Below, one piece after another: positions 45,868 to 52,954 of a stretch of 64,000 nucleotides of DNA (its first letter is position 1; every line of letters starts with the position of its first letter). A program made the translations under genes and the position numbers. This stretch comes from Mobula hypostoma (taxonomy: Eukaryota), in the NCBI RefSeq assembly GCF_963921235.1, contig NC_086108.1, forward strand, positions 93,126,001 through 93,190,000, written 5' to 3'. The notes beneath the pieces were generated by a model, which saw only the letters and a list, made by a program, of their open reading frames with translations, was not told the DNA's origin and did not search any database.

Positions 45868-46140
45868 TCACACAATCATAGTATGCCAACAAACATAGCA
45901 TACCCTAACCAACATAGTATGCCAAACCAACATAGCATGACTACACCAAAATAGTATGCCCACACCAACATAGAATGCCCACAAGCATAGCATGCCTATG
46001 CCAAAATAGTATGCCATCACCAACACATCAGGCCTACACCAACATAGCATGCCCACACCAAAATAGCATGCCCACACCAACATAGTATGCCCACACCAAA
46101 ACTGCATGCCTACATAGCATGCCCAAACCAACCTAACATT
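45868..46140. repeat. Minisatellite, about 19-20-bp unit CACACCAACATAG(C/T)ATGCC
   Basis: About 13 degenerate head-to-tail units directly following a minus-strand V-SINE fragment (45720-45865). Confidence 0.9.
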
Positions 46141-47114
46141 CCCCACTACCTGAAAAGATATTGGAGGCCGAAGTACTCAAATGCACAAGCACTTGGCAAA
46201 CCATAAACTTCAAAGTGATGGAGTCAGTGAGTTTACCTGTGGCAAAATGATCAGCCAAATCCACTCCTGTGCTGTGATTTTTTTATTCTTTATTGAAGTC
46301 TGTTAGCCCTGCAGAACAGAGTCAAATTGGGCAGTTACATCTTAGTTTATTGCAAATCTTGATATTATTACAAGCACCATTGATAGCCCTAGTGACTCAC
46401 AAAATGGTTGGTCAGAATAAAATTCAGAATTTAATTTACTGTCCCTGACATATGACATGAAATATGTTGTCTTGTGGCATGAGTACAGTGCAAGACATAA
46501 AAATCTATAAATTAAAAGATAAATAAATAGTCCGAAGAAAAGATTAATGAGGTAGTCTTCAGGGGTCCATGGGCCATTCAGAAATCTGAAGGCAGAGGGG
46601 AAGAGCCCATTCTTAAAATGTTGAGTGTGGCTCTTGTACCTCCTCCCTCATGGTAGGAATGAGAAGAGGTCAGGTCCTGGATGGTGAGGACTTTTGGTTA
46701 TGCATGCCGCAGTCTTGAGGCATCACCTCCTGAAGATGTCCTCAGTGGTGGGGAAGGTTGTGTCTGTGATGCAGATGGCTCAGTCTACAACCCTCTGCAT
46801 TTTCTTATGATCCTGTGCATCGCAGCATCCATACCAAGTGGTGATGCAGCCATTCAGAATGTTTTCCGGCATGAATGAGCCTCCATCGGTCTGGGTTGAC
46901 CATTGATGGTGCATCCTAGCTGTCTACATACGCAAGCCTGGCCAATACGATATGGAGAGCAAGCTGTTACCCACGTAGCAAGCTCCCCATCTCCACGCAT
47001 CTGACAAACCCAAAGGAACGGCAGAGACCGATATATTTTGGTATCAGCAGCTTCACAGGAGTTGCCAGTCAGCATTGAACTCAACGCAGGATGACCTTGA
47101 CTCTGGACTTCACC

Positions 47115-47975
47115 TGTGACGAGAATACACATAAAATTAAGATGTTTGCTGGCCTAGGTTAGCATCAGTGACATCAGCAAGTGGTCTGCCACCTGCCCTC
47201 AGGGGAAGGAGAGATAAGGAACAATGGAGCAGCGTCTGGAGATGTGTAATGAAGGGACGTGGGAGAGAGAGCTGTCTGGAGCAGCTCCCCCTTTGAACCC
47301 TGAACTGTTTGAAGTGATGGACAGGCGATACCCCAGCAGGGGGATAAAAAGGGACCGGTTTGCTAAGGCAGGACACACGCCACCCGAGGTAACGAGACCC
47401 TGGAAGCGGTACGCTTCTCACGAGTCGGTGGGAAGTACCAGACAACGGCCAGGGTGGAAGGGTACGATCAGCGGGAACCCGGTGTGTGTCCGCCCTTGCC
47501 TGGGTGCCGGGTTCACTGCAGAGGAGCAACCGCATCTGGAGGAGGGGTCACAGTCGGTGACCTCAGGTGACATCACCAAGGACCTGCCCAAAAAGCTGCT
47601 TGTGAGCCATATCGTCGGTCTGTGAGTGAAGCCATGTCTGAATGATCAGTTGTTCCTGTTCTCTCTCTCTCTTCCCCCACGTTGTCCATCGCCATGGCAA
47701 TGATTACTGCGAACTGAACTACTAAACTGGACTGAACTTTGAGTCACTTTGAAATTTGGTCATTTACCCCTAGACAACGATAGAGCTTGATTGATGCTGT
47801 TATCTTAATTCTGTGCACATGTGTGGTTATCATTGCTGAACTGTTGCATCTATTATCCTTTCAATTACTGTGTTGCTTGTTTCTTTAATAAAACTTTCTT
47901 AGTTCTAGTAATCCAGATTCCAACTGAGTGATCCATTTCTGCTGATTTGGCAACCCAGTTACGGGGTACGTAACA
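47115..47975 (+). repeat. 5' LTR (861 bp)
   Basis: TGTGACG...CGTAACA; GATAAAAA TATA-like motif near 47343; AATAAA near 47887. Confidence 0.97.
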
Positions 47976-47979
47976 TAAG

Positions 47980-48005
47980 TAGGGTTCTCGTCCGCGATTT
48001 TGAAC
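47980..48005 (+). promoter_or_regulatory. Primer-binding site, degenerate tRNA-Pro-like
   Basis: TAGGGTTCTCGTCCGCGATTTTGAAC just after the 5' LTR, compared with canonical TGGGGGCTCGTCCGGGAT. Confidence 0.7.
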
Positions 48006-48074
48006 GCTAAATTTGGGACGGAGTAAATTGATTGGGTTAAAATTCCCGAAAGAAAGAAAAGACAAACAGCAGAA

Positions 48075-50972
48075 ATGGAGGCTGAGGAATTTATAAAGGC
48101 GCCGACCTTTGAGGCATTAGAGGATGCCAGGAAATCGGAATTGATAGCTGTGGCCAAACGGTTGAATCTTGCTAAGGTGAAGTCGACAATGAGGAGAGAG
48201 GAGATACACAGAGCTATTGTAGAGTACTATGTATCTAAAGGTGTGTTTCCCCATGGTGAGCTGGGGGTGGTGTCTATTGAAAAACCTGCTGGAGGCGCGG
48301 TACAGATACAGCTTGAAAAACTGAGACTCGAGCACGAGTTCCGGGTACGGCAGTTAGAACACAAAGAGAAGCAGTTAGAAAGGCAGGAGAGAGAGAAAGA
48401 GGTAGAAAGGCAAGAGAGAGAAAAACAGTTGGAGAGAGAAGAGAGAGAGAGGGACAGACAGTTGGAGAGAGAGGAGAAACAGAGGAAAAGGGAATTTGAG
48501 CTGGAGAAGTTAAAGATAAGGGCCGAGCAGGGGCTCGTGCCGAACCAAGGTGGAGGGTTCCGGGCGACCCAGGACATTAGGCTGGTTCCCCCATTTGACG
48601 ATACCGACGTGGATCGGTACTTTCTCCACTTCGAAAAAGTGGCTATAAGTCAGGACTGGCCGAGGGATAAGTGGGTTGTCTTACTTCAGAGTGTACTGAA
48701 AGGGAAAGCCCAAGAAGCTTACTCCGCTTTATCCGCGGAAGATGCCCAAAGGTATGAGGTGGTGAAAGAGGCCATCCTCAGGATTTATGAGTTGGTCCCG
48801 GAGGCATACCGGCAGAGGTTCCGAAATGCGAGGAAGCAGTGGGACCGCACGTATTTGGAGTTTGCCCGTGAGATGCAGACATATTGTGAGCGTTGGTGCG
48901 CCTCAAAGGGGGTAGAGGGGGATTATGACAGACTGCTACAACTGATCCTGATTGAGCAGTTTAAAGGTTGTGTCCCTGAGGGTATGAGACCCTACCTCGA
49001 TGAGAAAGAGGCAGCCACGTTAGCCGCAACTGCTAAGTTAGCGGATGAGTATGCGTTGACGCATAAAATGAAGTTTGCCCCGAGTAAAGGCTACCAGAAG
49101 GGTAGTCAGGACGGCGGGGAGAGTCCGCCGGAAAAGTCAGAAAGTAAGCCGGGGACTAGTGAGAAGGATAAGGTAGACCGGGAGCAGTCTGGTAGGAAGT
49201 CTCCTGGGGTCGTCTGTTATAATTGTGGGAAAGCCGGACACTTTGCGTCCAGGTGCTTTGCCCCAAAGAAGGAGACGGGAAAAGGAAAAACGGAAATGTT
49301 GAATGGCTGTATTGAGCTGTTAAGCGAACCGCTAGGGAAGGACAGGTCTGAAAAAGTCCAGGAAGGGCGCGAGAGGTTTATCTCGGCCGGATTGGTGTCA
49401 GTGAAGGAGAGGTTAAAACCAGTTCCAGTGCGGATCTGGAGAGACACGGGAGCGTGTCAGTCCCTAATACTGAAGAGTGTATTAGAGTTTAGCTCAGAGA
49501 CCCATACTGGGGAGGTAGAGGTCAAAGGTGTTGGGGAAGGGACAGAGTCAGTCCCTTTGCACCAGATATACTTACAAAGCAACCTGGTCTCTGGACTAGT
49601 CACGATCGGGGTGAGGTCCGAATTACCGATGAAAGACGTGGAAGTCTTGCTCGGTAATGACCTCGCCGGAGGAATCGTGTTCCCAGTCGTGAGATTGACA
49701 GGTCAGCCTGCCAGCATTGAGGCCCCGCCCATGGACTCACAGGTTCATCACGGGCCCGCGATAGTGAATTTAGCTGAAACGTTTCTGCCAACCTTGTATG
49801 AGACGGGGTGTAGTGAGACAAGAGGTAGTGAGGGAGCTGGGACAGACGTAGCAGTAGCCAGGAAAGAATTTGTGCAGACGCGGGAGCGAGACGAGGGGCT
49901 GATGGTTTTGGCAGAGACTGCTCTCTCTGACACAGCCTTGACAAGGGAACTAGTAGGCTATTGTGCGGAGGAGGAAGTGCTAAGGAAGAAAGGGAAATCA
50001 AGTACAGTATCCGCAGATGAGGAGTGGGGGGTGGTGCAAAAGAGTTATGGGGATGAGGTTTTTAACATGGCCCACGAGGTACCCCCTGGTGGACATTTTG
50101 TGGTGCTGGAGGAAACAGTTGGTGGAATCATGAAAGAGATTTACTGGCTGCCCAGGGGGAAAAATGTTATTGATCATGACCGACGCGAACTGAGACGGTC
50201 ACCGGCTTTTGATATGCTAACAAACCTAGTCGGTGTTAGCATGGAAATCAACGAAGCTAGGGGCCCCCTGATAAGAGGAAAAAACCATTTTGAAAAGATT
50301 AGGATGGGATCGGTCAGATGGGAGAAGGCTATTGTTTTGGCCAGGTCTACTGATAAGGTCTCTCCCTTAATCCCCGAACAAAGCGAATCTTTAGAAGAAG
50401 TAATTAAACGACTCGCACCCGTGTGTTTGATTGTCCCGAGGCAATGCAAAGAACTGGGACGTTGGGTGATTGTTGTTACAATAGGGCAGCCTAGTAAACA
50501 ACACCCATATTTAATGAGTAATTCAGTGACTAAAGGGCATATGAACACAGAGGTGTGTATTGGCAATTTAATACGGCTGTCTGAAGCCAGCTTGATAGTG
50601 AACCTTGAAAAAAATGAATTCGGCCACACAAGGGTCACTTACCTGGGAATTGTGGTGACACAGGGGCAGCTGGCAGTGATACAAGCTACAGTGCAGGCTA
50701 TCGCTGACCTCCCAACCCCGACAGACAAGAGGGCCCTCAGAAGGCTCTTGGAGATGGTGGGGTACTACAGGAAGTTTTGCAATAACTCTGCGGTCAATAC
50801 CCGTCCCCCTCCTACTAAGCCCTTGCGAGAGAAAACTGAGTCAGAATGGGACGACCCTTGTTATTGTGGTCCGGGACAAAACCAAATGAGAGGTTACATT
50901 GGTCGCAATTCATCAGTGTTTTTGGCCACTATGAAGTTTGCTGAGTTGGAGCCTGGTCTAAGGGATTATTAA
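48075..50972 (+). CDS. 965-aa Gag-protease polyprotein with degenerate IN/RT/RNase H tail
   Basis: Uninterrupted ORF; E/R/K coiled coil; capsid/SCAN-like PEAYRQRFR..LILIEQF; CX2CX4HX4C at 49215-49256; RDTGA at about 49440 and LLGND; AHEVPPGGH..YWLP; KQHPY; CIGNL; GYYRKF. Confidence 0.9.
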   Translation: MEAEEFIKAPTFEALEDARKSELIAVAKRLNLAKVKSTMRREEIHRAIVEYYVSKGVFPHGELGVVSIEKPAGGAVQIQLEKLRLEHEFRVRQLEHKEKQLERQEREKEVERQEREKQLEREERERDRQLEREEKQRKREFELEKLKIRAEQGLVPNQGGGFRATQDIRLVPPFDDTDVDRYFLHFEKVAISQDWPRDKWVVLLQSVLKGKAQEAYSALSAEDAQRYEVVKEAILRIYELVPEAYRQRFRNARKQWDRTYLEFAREMQTYCERWCASKGVEGDYDRLLQLILIEQFKGCVPEGMRPYLDEKEAATLAATAKLADEYALTHKMKFAPSKGYQKGSQDGGESPPEKSESKPGTSEKDKVDREQSGRKSPGVVCYNCGKAGHFASRCFAPKKETGKGKTEMLNGCIELLSEPLGKDRSEKVQEGRERFISAGLVSVKERLKPVPVRIWRDTGACQSLILKSVLEFSSETHTGEVEVKGVGEGTESVPLHQIYLQSNLVSGLVTIGVRSELPMKDVEVLLGNDLAGGIVFPVVRLTGQPASIEAPPMDSQVHHGPAIVNLAETFLPTLYETGCSETRGSEGAGTDVAVARKEFVQTRERDEGLMVLAETALSDTALTRELVGYCAEEEVLRKKGKSSTVSADEEWGVVQKSYGDEVFNMAHEVPPGGHFVVLEETVGGIMKEIYWLPRGKNVIDHDRRELRRSPAFDMLTNLVGVSMEINEARGPLIRGKNHFEKIRMGSVRWEKAIVLARSTDKVSPLIPEQSESLEEVIKRLAPVCLIVPRQCKELGRWVIVVTIGQPSKQHPYLMSNSVTKGHMNTEVCIGNLIRLSEASLIVNLEKNEFGHTRVTYLGIVVTQGQLAVIQATVQAIADLPTPTDKRALRRLLEMVGYYRKFCNNSAVNTRPPPTKPLREKTESEWDDPCYCGPGQNQMRGYIGRNSSVFLATMKFAELEPGLRDY

Positions 50973-51133
50973 TAACACGTGTAAAAGGAACAGAGAATGC
51001 GATGACTGTCTATCAAGGTGTTGACAGCTTCAAACTCGCTGTGTTAGCCAAATAGCTGATAAAGATGTATATTTGTGTATGTATCAAATAATGTATTCAT
51101 GTTTGTAATGTTTACCTCCCGGTAAAAATCCTT

Positions 51134-51145
51134 AAAGGGGGGAAG
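51134..51145 (+). promoter_or_regulatory. Polypurine tract
   Basis: AAAGGGGGGAAG immediately before the 3' LTR. Confidence 0.9.
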
Positions 51146-52005
51146 TGTGACGAGAATACACATAAAATTAAGATGTTTGCTGGCCTAGGTTAGCATCAGT
51201 GACATCAGCAGTTGGTCTGCCACCTGCCCTCAGGGGAAGGAGAGATAAGGAACAATGGAGCAGCGTCTGGAGATGTGTAATGAAGGGACGTGGGAGAGAG
51301 AGCAGTCTGGAGCAGCTCCCCCTTTGAACCCTGAACTGTTTGAAGTGATGGACAGGCGATACCCCAGCAGGGGATAAAAAGGGACTGGTTTGCTAAGGCA
51401 GGACACACGCCACCCGAGGTAACGAGACCCTGGAAGCGGTACGCTTCTCATGAGTCGGTGGGAAGTACCAGACAACGGCCAGGGTGGAAGAGTACGATCA
51501 GCGGGAACCCGGTGTGTGTCTGCCCTTGCCTGGGTGCCGGGTTCACTGCAGAGGAGCGACCGCATCTGGAGGAGGGGTCACAGTCGGTGACCTCAGGTGA
51601 CATTACCAAGGACCTGCCCAAAAAGCTGCTTGTGAGCCATATCGTCGGGCTGTGAGTGAAGCCATGTCTGAATGATCAGTTGTTCCTGTTCTCTCTCTCT
51701 CTTCCCCCACGTTGTCCATTGCCATGGCAACGATTACTGCGAACTGAACTACTAAACTGGACTGAACTTTGAGTCACTTTGAAATTTGGTCATTTACCCC
51801 TAGACAACGATAGAGCTTGATTGATGCTGTTATCTTAATTCTGTGCACATGTGTGGTTATCATTGCTGAACTGTTGCATTTATTATCCTTTCGATTACTG
51901 TGTTGCTTGTTTCTTTAATAAAACTTTCTTAGTTCTAGTAATCCAGACTCCAACTGAGTGATCCATTTCTGCTGGTTTGGCAACCCAGTTACGGGGTACG
52001 TAACA
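51146..52005 (+). repeat. 3' LTR (860 bp)
   Basis: Direct repeat of 47115-47975; hand count 16 substitutions and 1 indel. Confidence 0.97.
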
Positions 52006-52954
52006 CACCTGAAGCCTTCCCTATGAGTGGGTATAGCCACAAGGCAGTGGGGGTTTGAGATAGAGCTCTCCTTCTCCTGAGCTGCCAACAATGTCTGATG
52101 AGCCCCATCTCCCCAAAGCGACTGGTTTTAAGGTGCCAGTAACCCACTTTTGCCCCTTCTCCTGGAAATAGAAACGGTTCTGCGGGACTTAGTGAAGAGC
52201 AGGACCTGGACTTGGTTGCATTTAATAGATAGTGGGAGTTTATCACCATTACCACCCCTGGTTAAAACAACCTTAAGAAACCACCTCCAGCGTACATCGA
52301 CATAAATATGTACGAGTATATGGTGACATACCTTATCTAATCAAACTCCGGATGAAGTTGAGCTGCTGATATGTCTTCTTTGCAATTGCATCAATGTGTT
52401 GGGTCCAGGGCAGAACCTCGGAGACGCTGGGCACTGAGGAACTTGAAGCCGTCCCCCCCAATGAGGACTGGTGTATGTTCTCATAACTTCTCAACGTAGA
52501 TCACCGCTGCATTTTCTCTGCCAGTGTGGCTCTTCTGCAACAAATTCCAGGGTAGAACAATGTCTAAAATCAGCAGCAACAAGTCTAGCACCAGACTTGC
52601 TTAAGTGGAGTATAATGTATCCAGTCTTCGATGCTAGATATCTTTGTGACCTTTGGATATGTAGGACAACATGGTGGTACAGCTGGCTGGGCTGTTGCTT
52701 TACAACACCTGCAAATTGAGTTCAGCCCTGACCATTGGTGCTGTCTGAGTGGAGTTTATATGTTCTCTGTGTGATTGCACAGAAGACCAAAAGACCGTAA
52801 GACCATAATGCACATGAGCAAATTAGGCTATTCGGTCCATCGAGTCTGCTGTGCCATTCTATCATTCCTGATTTATTATCCCCCCCATCCCCATTCTCCT
52901 GCCTTTCCCCCATAACATTTGACACCCTTACTAATCAAGAACCTATCAACCTCT

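Follow-up and report, generated by a model that had tools for sequence, protein, structure and literature searches.

The window, that is, the whole stretch of 64,000 nucleotides of Mobula hypostoma DNA that was analyzed, contains an LTR retroelement at 47115–52005, in which one 965-codon open reading frame (ORF) lies between an LTR pair, with CACC at both flanks (Table 1). The cis signals listed in an earlier note on this DNA were all located, namely, the LTR pair, the CACC target site duplication (TSD), the polypurine tract (PPT) directly before the 3' LTR and the primer-binding site (PBS), and so were the single open 965-aa ORF (48075–50972) and every motif quoted from it. The PBS, although present and derived from tRNA-Pro, is not an exact match but the commonest mismatched form of the family with one more, private substitution. 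Among the 82 copies in which the PBS was read, 10 match tRNA-Pro, 40 have the mismatched variant, and the others are hybrids, as expected if the tRNA is partly recopied into the site at each cycle. An earlier tRNA pattern match was set aside, as it is not a tRNA gene. The two LTRs differ by 16 substitutions (13 transitions) and one indel, resulting in a divergence of 1.9%, in agreement with the previous estimate of ~2%. A 19-bp tandem repeat was also observed at 46001–46133 of the window, ~1 kb upstream of the element.

A Pfam scan of the 965-aa ORF at E≤1 found nothing beyond SCAN and zf-CCHC, with rve, RVT_1, RNase H, and Integrase_H2C2 being absent at that threshold. The DTG region was modelled as a retropepsin fold (pLDDT 80; alignment of 53 rows), the top Foldseek matches of the model were retroviral proteases (E 7.5e-4), and we regard the region as a putative retropepsin-type protease. 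Together with the SCAN domain and the zf-CCHC knuckle, the model bears out the earlier impression that Gag and protease look intact. The nearest named proteins to the ORF were NCBI models from Mobula hypostoma (92–94%).

Table 1. Features of the element (window positions unless given as ORF residues).
Feature	Position	Strand	Basis or remark
5' TSD CACC	47111..47114	+	direct sequence reading
5' LTR, 861 bp, TG..CA	47115..47975	+	LTR comparison
PBS derived from tRNA-Pro, variant form	47980..47998	+	match to 3' ends of genomic tRNA-Pro genes
ORF, 965 codons	48075..50972	+	last base of stop codon at 50972
gag	48075..49264	+	Pfam and alignment to autonomous partner
gag parts in order: N-terminal region, charged coiled-coil repeat, SCAN capsid, CCHC knuckle	48075..49264	+
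SCAN domain	ORF aa 242-331		PF02023, E 4.6e-13
zf-CCHC knuckle	ORF aa 380-394		Pfam at E≤1
Approximate recombination boundary	49265	.	jump in divergence from partner, ~3% before and ~20% after
Aspartic protease, DTG at 49443, lineage-specific	49415..49714	+	predicted fold and variant counts
Protease-integrase linker and His-His half of integrase zinc finger	49715..50173	+	alignment to partner
Junction in place of integrase CCHC half, catalytic core, and C-terminal domain	50174..50221	+	net 888 nt gone, in frame
Integrase-RT linker and RT start (KQHPY)	50222..50510	+	then in-frame 384-nt deletion of RT fingers/palm
RT remnant with thumb region, net 54-nt deletion	50511..50860	+	partner's catalytic YIDD is CIGN here
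RNase H C-terminal scrap, after in-frame 258-nt deletion	50861..50972	+	alignment to partner
PPT, identical in partner	51129..51145	+	directly before 3' LTR
3' LTR, 860 bp	51146..52005	+	AATAAA ~945 nt past stop codon
3' TSD CACC	52006..52009	+	direct sequence reading

A young family with common deletions

When the genome was searched with 701 bp of the pol remnant, 2,554 first-look candidates were obtained, and the 40 that were scored were all full-length matches (39 at 97%), with two full LTRs in 38 and a 4-bp TSD in 33. Exact matches to a 20-mer diagnostic of the deleted cassette number 2,050 genome-wide, which is a lower bound, so that the family occupies roughly 10 Mb of the genome (2,050 × 4.9 kb). 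To avoid choice by similarity, the first 40 consecutive matches on one contig (C1) were taken as an unselected sample. In these, the four pol junctions were found in 40, 36, 40, and 38 copies when taken singly and in 35 when taken together, indicating that the deletions are not private to the window copy. LTR pairs were present in 35 of the 40 and had a median divergence of 0.34%, with four pairs identical; a 4-bp TSD was present in 31, and an ORF of at least 900 codons was kept by 16. The LTR was of the window's type in 29 and of an older type in 11. Identical junctions occurred in copies with different TSDs, spread over many contigs, and the copies thus represent many independent insertions with a common defect, as in a non-autonomous family. 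A domesticated gag-derived host gene was ruled out, as there are ~2,050 dispersed young copies and not one fixed LTR-less locus.

Among 14 sequencing runs from four organisms, no RNA run was listed as containing the element. Contigs from four sequencing runs spanned 30, 30, 5, and 29 of 30 element bins, which has no bearing on transcription; in one run, both the integrase and the RNase H junction were crossed by contigs, and for the other three, no such bridging was seen under a 31-letter rule in the pieces listed. Tandem elements with a common LTR were also observed in both classes, deleted and full-length (L129/L130, G000:C80:24468000-24481800, and L066).

A rare full-length partner

The autonomous partner predicted in the earlier note, with common LTR ends, PBS, and PPT, was reached by a stingray integrase query and one long-frame gag match. 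Eight full-length copies (6.3–6.65 kb) are of the young LTR type, their LTRs being 91–95% similar to those of the window element and their PBS and PPT the same as its own, and four further copies bear the older LTR (80–83%). An exact 20-mer specific to the partner integrase occurs 65 times, again a lower bound, and the deleted copies are accordingly ~30 times as many by these counts. Pfam analysis of two partner ORFs (1,535 and 1,548 aa) detected SCAN, knuckle, Integrase_H2C2, rve, integrase C-terminus, RVT_1, and RNase H, all on one ORF in the order PR-IN-RT-RH, whereas the window ORF lacks the integrase, RT, and RNase H domains, as had been proposed. Gmr1-like elements are defined by a SCAN capsid and PR-IN-RT-RH order in the available passages of bioRxiv 10.1101/2025.03.03.638093. 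Because the partner has both and the remnants of the window element are colinear with its pol, the partner and the deleted family can be judged to be Gmr1-like. From missing catalytic domains combined with young insertions, we infer mobilization in trans by the partner. The rve profile matches elsewhere in the genome were not the partner; 25 of the 30 loci fetched match the RT thumb only, and no DNA shared with the element was found in the loci of that search.

With one partner ORF as a ruler, the window element is short by a net 888 nt in integrase, 384 and 54 nt in RT, and 258 nt in RNase H. These four deletions and ~8 smaller indels have net lengths divisible by 3, the exceptions to in-frame alignment being one short block placed out of frame by the aligner and the last 13 codons. 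The best-preserved piece of the remnant is the RT thumb block (85% DNA identity to the partner). The RT YIDD site is CIGN in all of 54 young deleted copies and CIGD or YIGN in all of 17 old ones. A stop at codon 805 was found in 4 of the 54 young and 5 of the 17 old selected copies (9/71 together) and in none of the 29 unselected young copies; its presence in several copies suggests that the element does not strictly depend on its last ~160 codons. CGA>TGA changes recur among the deleted copies.

The remnant differs by ~2% among deleted copies and by 22–34% from the partner, far more than the LTRs of the window copy from each other, which upholds the claim that the element moved after enzyme loss. 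Thus, the sequences indicate that the deleted family inserted very recently, after losing its enzymes. The reading of the window element as a dead copy that acquired its own deletions after insertion, or of the copies as products of segmental duplication, has practically no probability left; it is refuted by the common junctions with distinct TSDs on many contigs, and the same difference in remnant divergence speaks against it.

An abrupt boundary ahead of the protease

Divergence between the deleted family and the young partner changes abruptly at ~49265. Upstream, it is 3.9% in the LTR and 2.1–3.2% in gag (capsid, 3.2%; knuckle, 2.7%); downstream, it is 20% in the knuckle-protease linker, 11% in the protease, and about 22–35% in the remnant. 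Every segment is 1–6% apart within the deleted family, and in LTR and gag, the distance to the partner is like that between deleted copies (2–4%). The boundary position is identical in all 54 young copies examined, none of which has the partner's linker-protease.

In a search with the older LTR, the 20 best copies fetched included 17 with an LTR pair, all of them 4.8–5.05 kb long and with the same pol blocks missing. The deleted cassette thus also occurs in the older subfamily, which has a partner of its own of similar age. LTR distances are 3.9% between the young deleted family and young partner and 4.6% between the old ones, as compared with 14% across ages. In trees, LTRs clustered by age and protease plus remnant by class (support 1.0). 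In a further set of trees, built from 31 of 83 copies, gag sequences of the two classes were intermixed, and the autonomous copies formed one clade for the protease (100/100). AU tests on this set of 31 rejected a single autonomous clade for the LTR (p 1e-4; young copies alone, p 0.005) and for leader plus gag (p 4e-7; young copies alone, p 0.001).

Mobula birostris groups with M. yarae. In a protein model of M. birostris (P0121; 58% identity), three junctions, those of integrase, RT fingers, and RNase H, are present in frame, and the 54-nt junction is absent. These junctions and the presence of the same cassette in the old LTR subfamily indicate that the cassette is old. The passages seen of a preprint place the split of M. 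hypostoma and M. yarae at ~20 Mya (bioRxiv 10.64898/2026.10.27.761883), and a date of ~20 My for the cassette presumes vertical descent.

It is likely from these comparisons that the old cassette repeatedly took up the current LTR and gag of its helper, and we infer template switching within shared particles as the route of exchange. Homogenization of LTR and gag by ectopic gene conversion among chromosomal copies is quite improbable as an alternative. Dispersed copies do number thousands, and in a few, the LTR pair is mismatched or the TSD is missing, one pair being 9.3% apart with its TSD intact; however, most copies have matching TSDs and near-identical LTR pairs (31/35), the boundary common to all 54 young copies must have been inherited through transposition, and old copies still have their old LTRs, unconverted.

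Selection by domain and the open frame

Variants were scored against the commonest codon of each column and were called shared when present in two or more of the 54 young copies, recurrent CpG changes being included among the shared ones. Copies without two full LTRs had been left out before the counts (2/40, 2/20, 8/20, and 3/20), as had the tandem copy L066 and a partly deleted partner copy (L136), and codons 81–160 (repeat) and 701–715 were excluded. The pN/pS of shared variants was 0.13 for capsid, 0.16 for nucleocapsid, 0.30 for protease, and 0.90 for the remnant, compared with 0.85, 0.59, 1.26, and 0.89, respectively, for singletons (Fisher's p 3e-7 for capsid, 0.003 for protease, and 1 for the remnant). 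In the 29 unselected young copies, the shared values were 0.16, 0.27, 0.08, and 0.75, respectively (p 0.002, 0.67, 0.017, and 1). The inherited gag variants, at 0.13–0.17, were not near 1, the value that the earlier note had named as evidence against its proposal. The counts show that the capsid is under purifying selection, although this signal could be imported from the partner by recombination. No clear constraint was found in the variant counts of the Gag N-terminus and the knuckle-protease linker.

For the protease, omega was 0.17–0.22 between the lineages and 0.15–0.19 between the partner and the older partner, with a weaker signal between the old and young deleted groups (0.41; 7 S/7 N); the variant signal is based on small counts (18 S/13 N; 10 S/2 N). 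These values indicate purifying selection on the deleted lineage's own protease, a constraint that cannot be imported, since the linker-protease of the partner was seen in none of the young deleted copies.

The remnant, in contrast, evolves near-neutrally while its frame stays open. Shared variants of the RT remnant gave a pN/pS of 1.58, and fixed differences between the old and young deleted groups gave 0.91 for the remnant. There was no stop in 407 remnant codons, as compared with 6–11 expected on the assumption of 0.15–0.23 substitutions per site, and none among the 100 fixed remnant changes between the two groups. All 8 remnant indel classes present in at least three copies were in frame, and the proportion was lower for LTR indels (2/24; p 4e-6) and for singleton indels (6/22; p 5e-4). 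Five apparent shared frameshifts of the remnant include four that, judged by net length, belong to pairs adding up to an in-frame change (+5/+7, +22/-1). Near a C run, single-base changes were seen repeatedly, in two young and four old copies.

One could suppose that the remnant peptide is functional, the zinc-finger half, linker, and RT thumb serving as a tether between the defective Gag-PR and the Pol or RNA of the partner, and that the frame stays open for that reason. We hold this to be unlikely. The long preservation of the frame, the better preservation of the thumb, the value of 0.75 in the unselected copies, and the cis-acting Gag-Pol fusion described for mouse IAP 1delta1 in excerpts of PMC6466679 and PMC7411935 are in its favor, but the N/S ratio of the remnant is equal for shared and singleton variants, the fixed differences and RT-remnant variants show values near or above 1, and a lineage with a stop ahead of the thumb has spread to several copies. 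The open frame is most likely due to an RNA-level need rather than to a function of the peptide, in that translation to near the native stop would, for example, avoid the decay of an RNA with a long 3' UTR. With a length of ~950 nt as it stands, the 3' UTR would grow to more than 2 kb if the stop came right after the protease.

Proposed mechanism

Taken together, it is probable that this is a high-copy non-autonomous Gmr1-like family that keeps capsid, nucleocapsid, and protease and moves by the enzymes of a rare full-length partner. The RNA of the deleted element would be translated as Gag-PR-remnant, which would co-assemble with the partner's Gag-Pol polyprotein, and the RT and integrase of the partner would copy and insert whichever RNA had been packaged. 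When both RNAs were co-packaged, RT could switch templates in the homologous LTR and gag and would not do so within the diverged, deleted cassette, which would leave the old protease-remnant cassette under successive LTR and gag subfamilies. Selection on a protease unique to the defective lineage implies that the protein may favor its own RNA, namely, a cis preference.

The earlier suggestion of a lineage that makes its own particle and borrows RT and integrase stands with respect to the enzyme loss and the partner, but not for Gag, which is shared with the partner rather than the lineage's own. Because Gag is 2–3% apart and intermixed in trees, mixed particles with the partner are more likely than a separate one.

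The relationship might also be mutualistic, if the single ORF of the partner yields Gag and Pol at 1:1 and the additional Gag and protease that the partner requires come from the deleted family, as has been proposed for the extra Gag supply in Quinta/Cereba in the excerpts of PMC11302176. The single ORF of the partner, the 30-fold excess of deleted copies, the near-identical and so compatible Gag, and a partnership that lasted across at least two LTR subfamilies are consistent with this. It is nevertheless rather doubtful, since persistence and excess are equally compatible with parasitism, and a purely trans good would be open to free-riding and hardly accounts for selection on the defective lineage's own protease.

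We tentatively propose, as a possibility a little short of even, that the ~20-My protease plus dead-pol cassette is a Gmr1 parasite in devil and manta rays that renews LTR and gag from its helper, with the protease selected in cis and 400 drifting codons kept readable. Translation to the native stop may then be a general packaging licence in single-ORF LTR elements, because junk frames of >1,000 codons are likewise kept by further defective Gmr1 lineages of this genome.

Relation to known systems

Non-autonomous LTR families that encode Gag, with or without protease, are already known from plants and mouse, and these systems, as far as described in the excerpts on which this comparison is based, cover each ingredient separately. 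The family in the window shares the SCAN capsid and the PR-IN-RT-RH order, in partner and remnant, with Gmr1-like Ty3/Gypsy elements but differs in being non-autonomous and in reaching ~30 times its partner's number. A literature search (Gmr1, Mobula Gypsy, elasmobranch/fish non-autonomous LTR), with subscription journals and repeat databases outside its scope, found no account of the deleted family and no non-autonomous Gmr1 or elasmobranch case, and the passages seen of the ray genome preprint give only class totals for repeats.

In wheat, RLG_Quinta is a Gag-encoding non-autonomous family, 28–35 My old, that has LTR termini, PBS, and PPT in common with its partner RLG_Cereba, with recombination noted, and Sabrina/WHAM is cited there as a similar pair (excerpts of PMC11302176). 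The family described here likewise has a Gag ORF and termini, PBS, and PPT in common with a partner. According to those excerpts, however, Quinta has a divergent Gag and no protease or pol remnant, whereas Gag is here 2–3% from the partner's, with partner monophyly rejected, and the private part is the protease with an in-frame remnant. Mouse IAP 1delta1 carries an internal deletion with an in-frame Gag-Pol fusion, needs a full-length helper, and outnumbers it among new insertions (excerpts of PMC6466679 and PMC7411935). An in-frame Gag-Pol fusion after deletion is also found in our family; unlike that class II endogenous retrovirus, described with one 1.9-kb deletion taking part of gag, it has gag and protease whole, four deletions, and a cassette shared between Mobula species. 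The soybean SNRE non-autonomous elements, with >1,000 copies, are reported to renew the partnership with their autonomous relatives by LTR swapping (Du et al 2010); copy number and renewal are similar here, but SNRE is a plant element, and the exchange here comprises LTR plus gag, with a sharp boundary ahead of the protease. TR-GAG elements are <4 kb and encode Gag only, without protease or pol similarity (excerpt of PMC4350172), unlike the 4.9-kb element with its predicted protease fold and pol remnants, and in sugar beet, 28 families retain GAG/PROT and 8 more also decayed pol domains (excerpt of PMC13570524). These are likewise non-autonomous LTR elements with Gag, but in plants, and the passages seen report no selection test or open-frame constraint on remnants. 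Sorghum CR recombinants (excerpt of PMC4079200) are another example of one of these ingredients.

As an autonomous/non-autonomous LTR pair from an animal, the system is unusually clean, in that thousands of its copies are dated and selection can be resolved domain by domain, into a shared capsid, a private protease, and a neutral yet open remnant. Two questions thereby become accessible to measurement in sequences, namely, whether proteins of the Ty3/Gypsy type show a preference for the RNA that encodes them and what maintains reading frames in defective elements.

Other defective elements and gene models

A second defective Gmr1-like LTR kind was observed, with 4,513 first-look candidates. 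Two of its copies, L171 (G000:C1:210482000-210491000) and L172 (G000:C45:69241300-69250300), have open frames of 1,090 and 1,041 codons, with a scrambled capsid, no protease motif, and a deleted integrase core; they were chosen for long frames and are hence a biased pair, as frames of >900 codons were found in 2 of 12 loci. In stingrays (Hemitrygon akajei and Hypanus sabinus), the Gag(-protease) proteins P0014, P0016, P0032, and P0011 have a C-terminal acidic tail of ~300 aa that includes a second copy of part of the SCAN region, and they lack the integrase core and RT; they possibly represent an independent non-autonomous family. Finally, a 966-aa copy of the window ORF, XP_062899817.1 (P0001), is named by NCBI as metastasis-associated in colon cancer protein 1 isoform X1 (MACC1), and another member of its cluster is named UBE2G2 isoform X1. 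Both are likely to be gene models that absorbed copies of the element, and the family would thereby account for a set of misannotated Mobula gene models.
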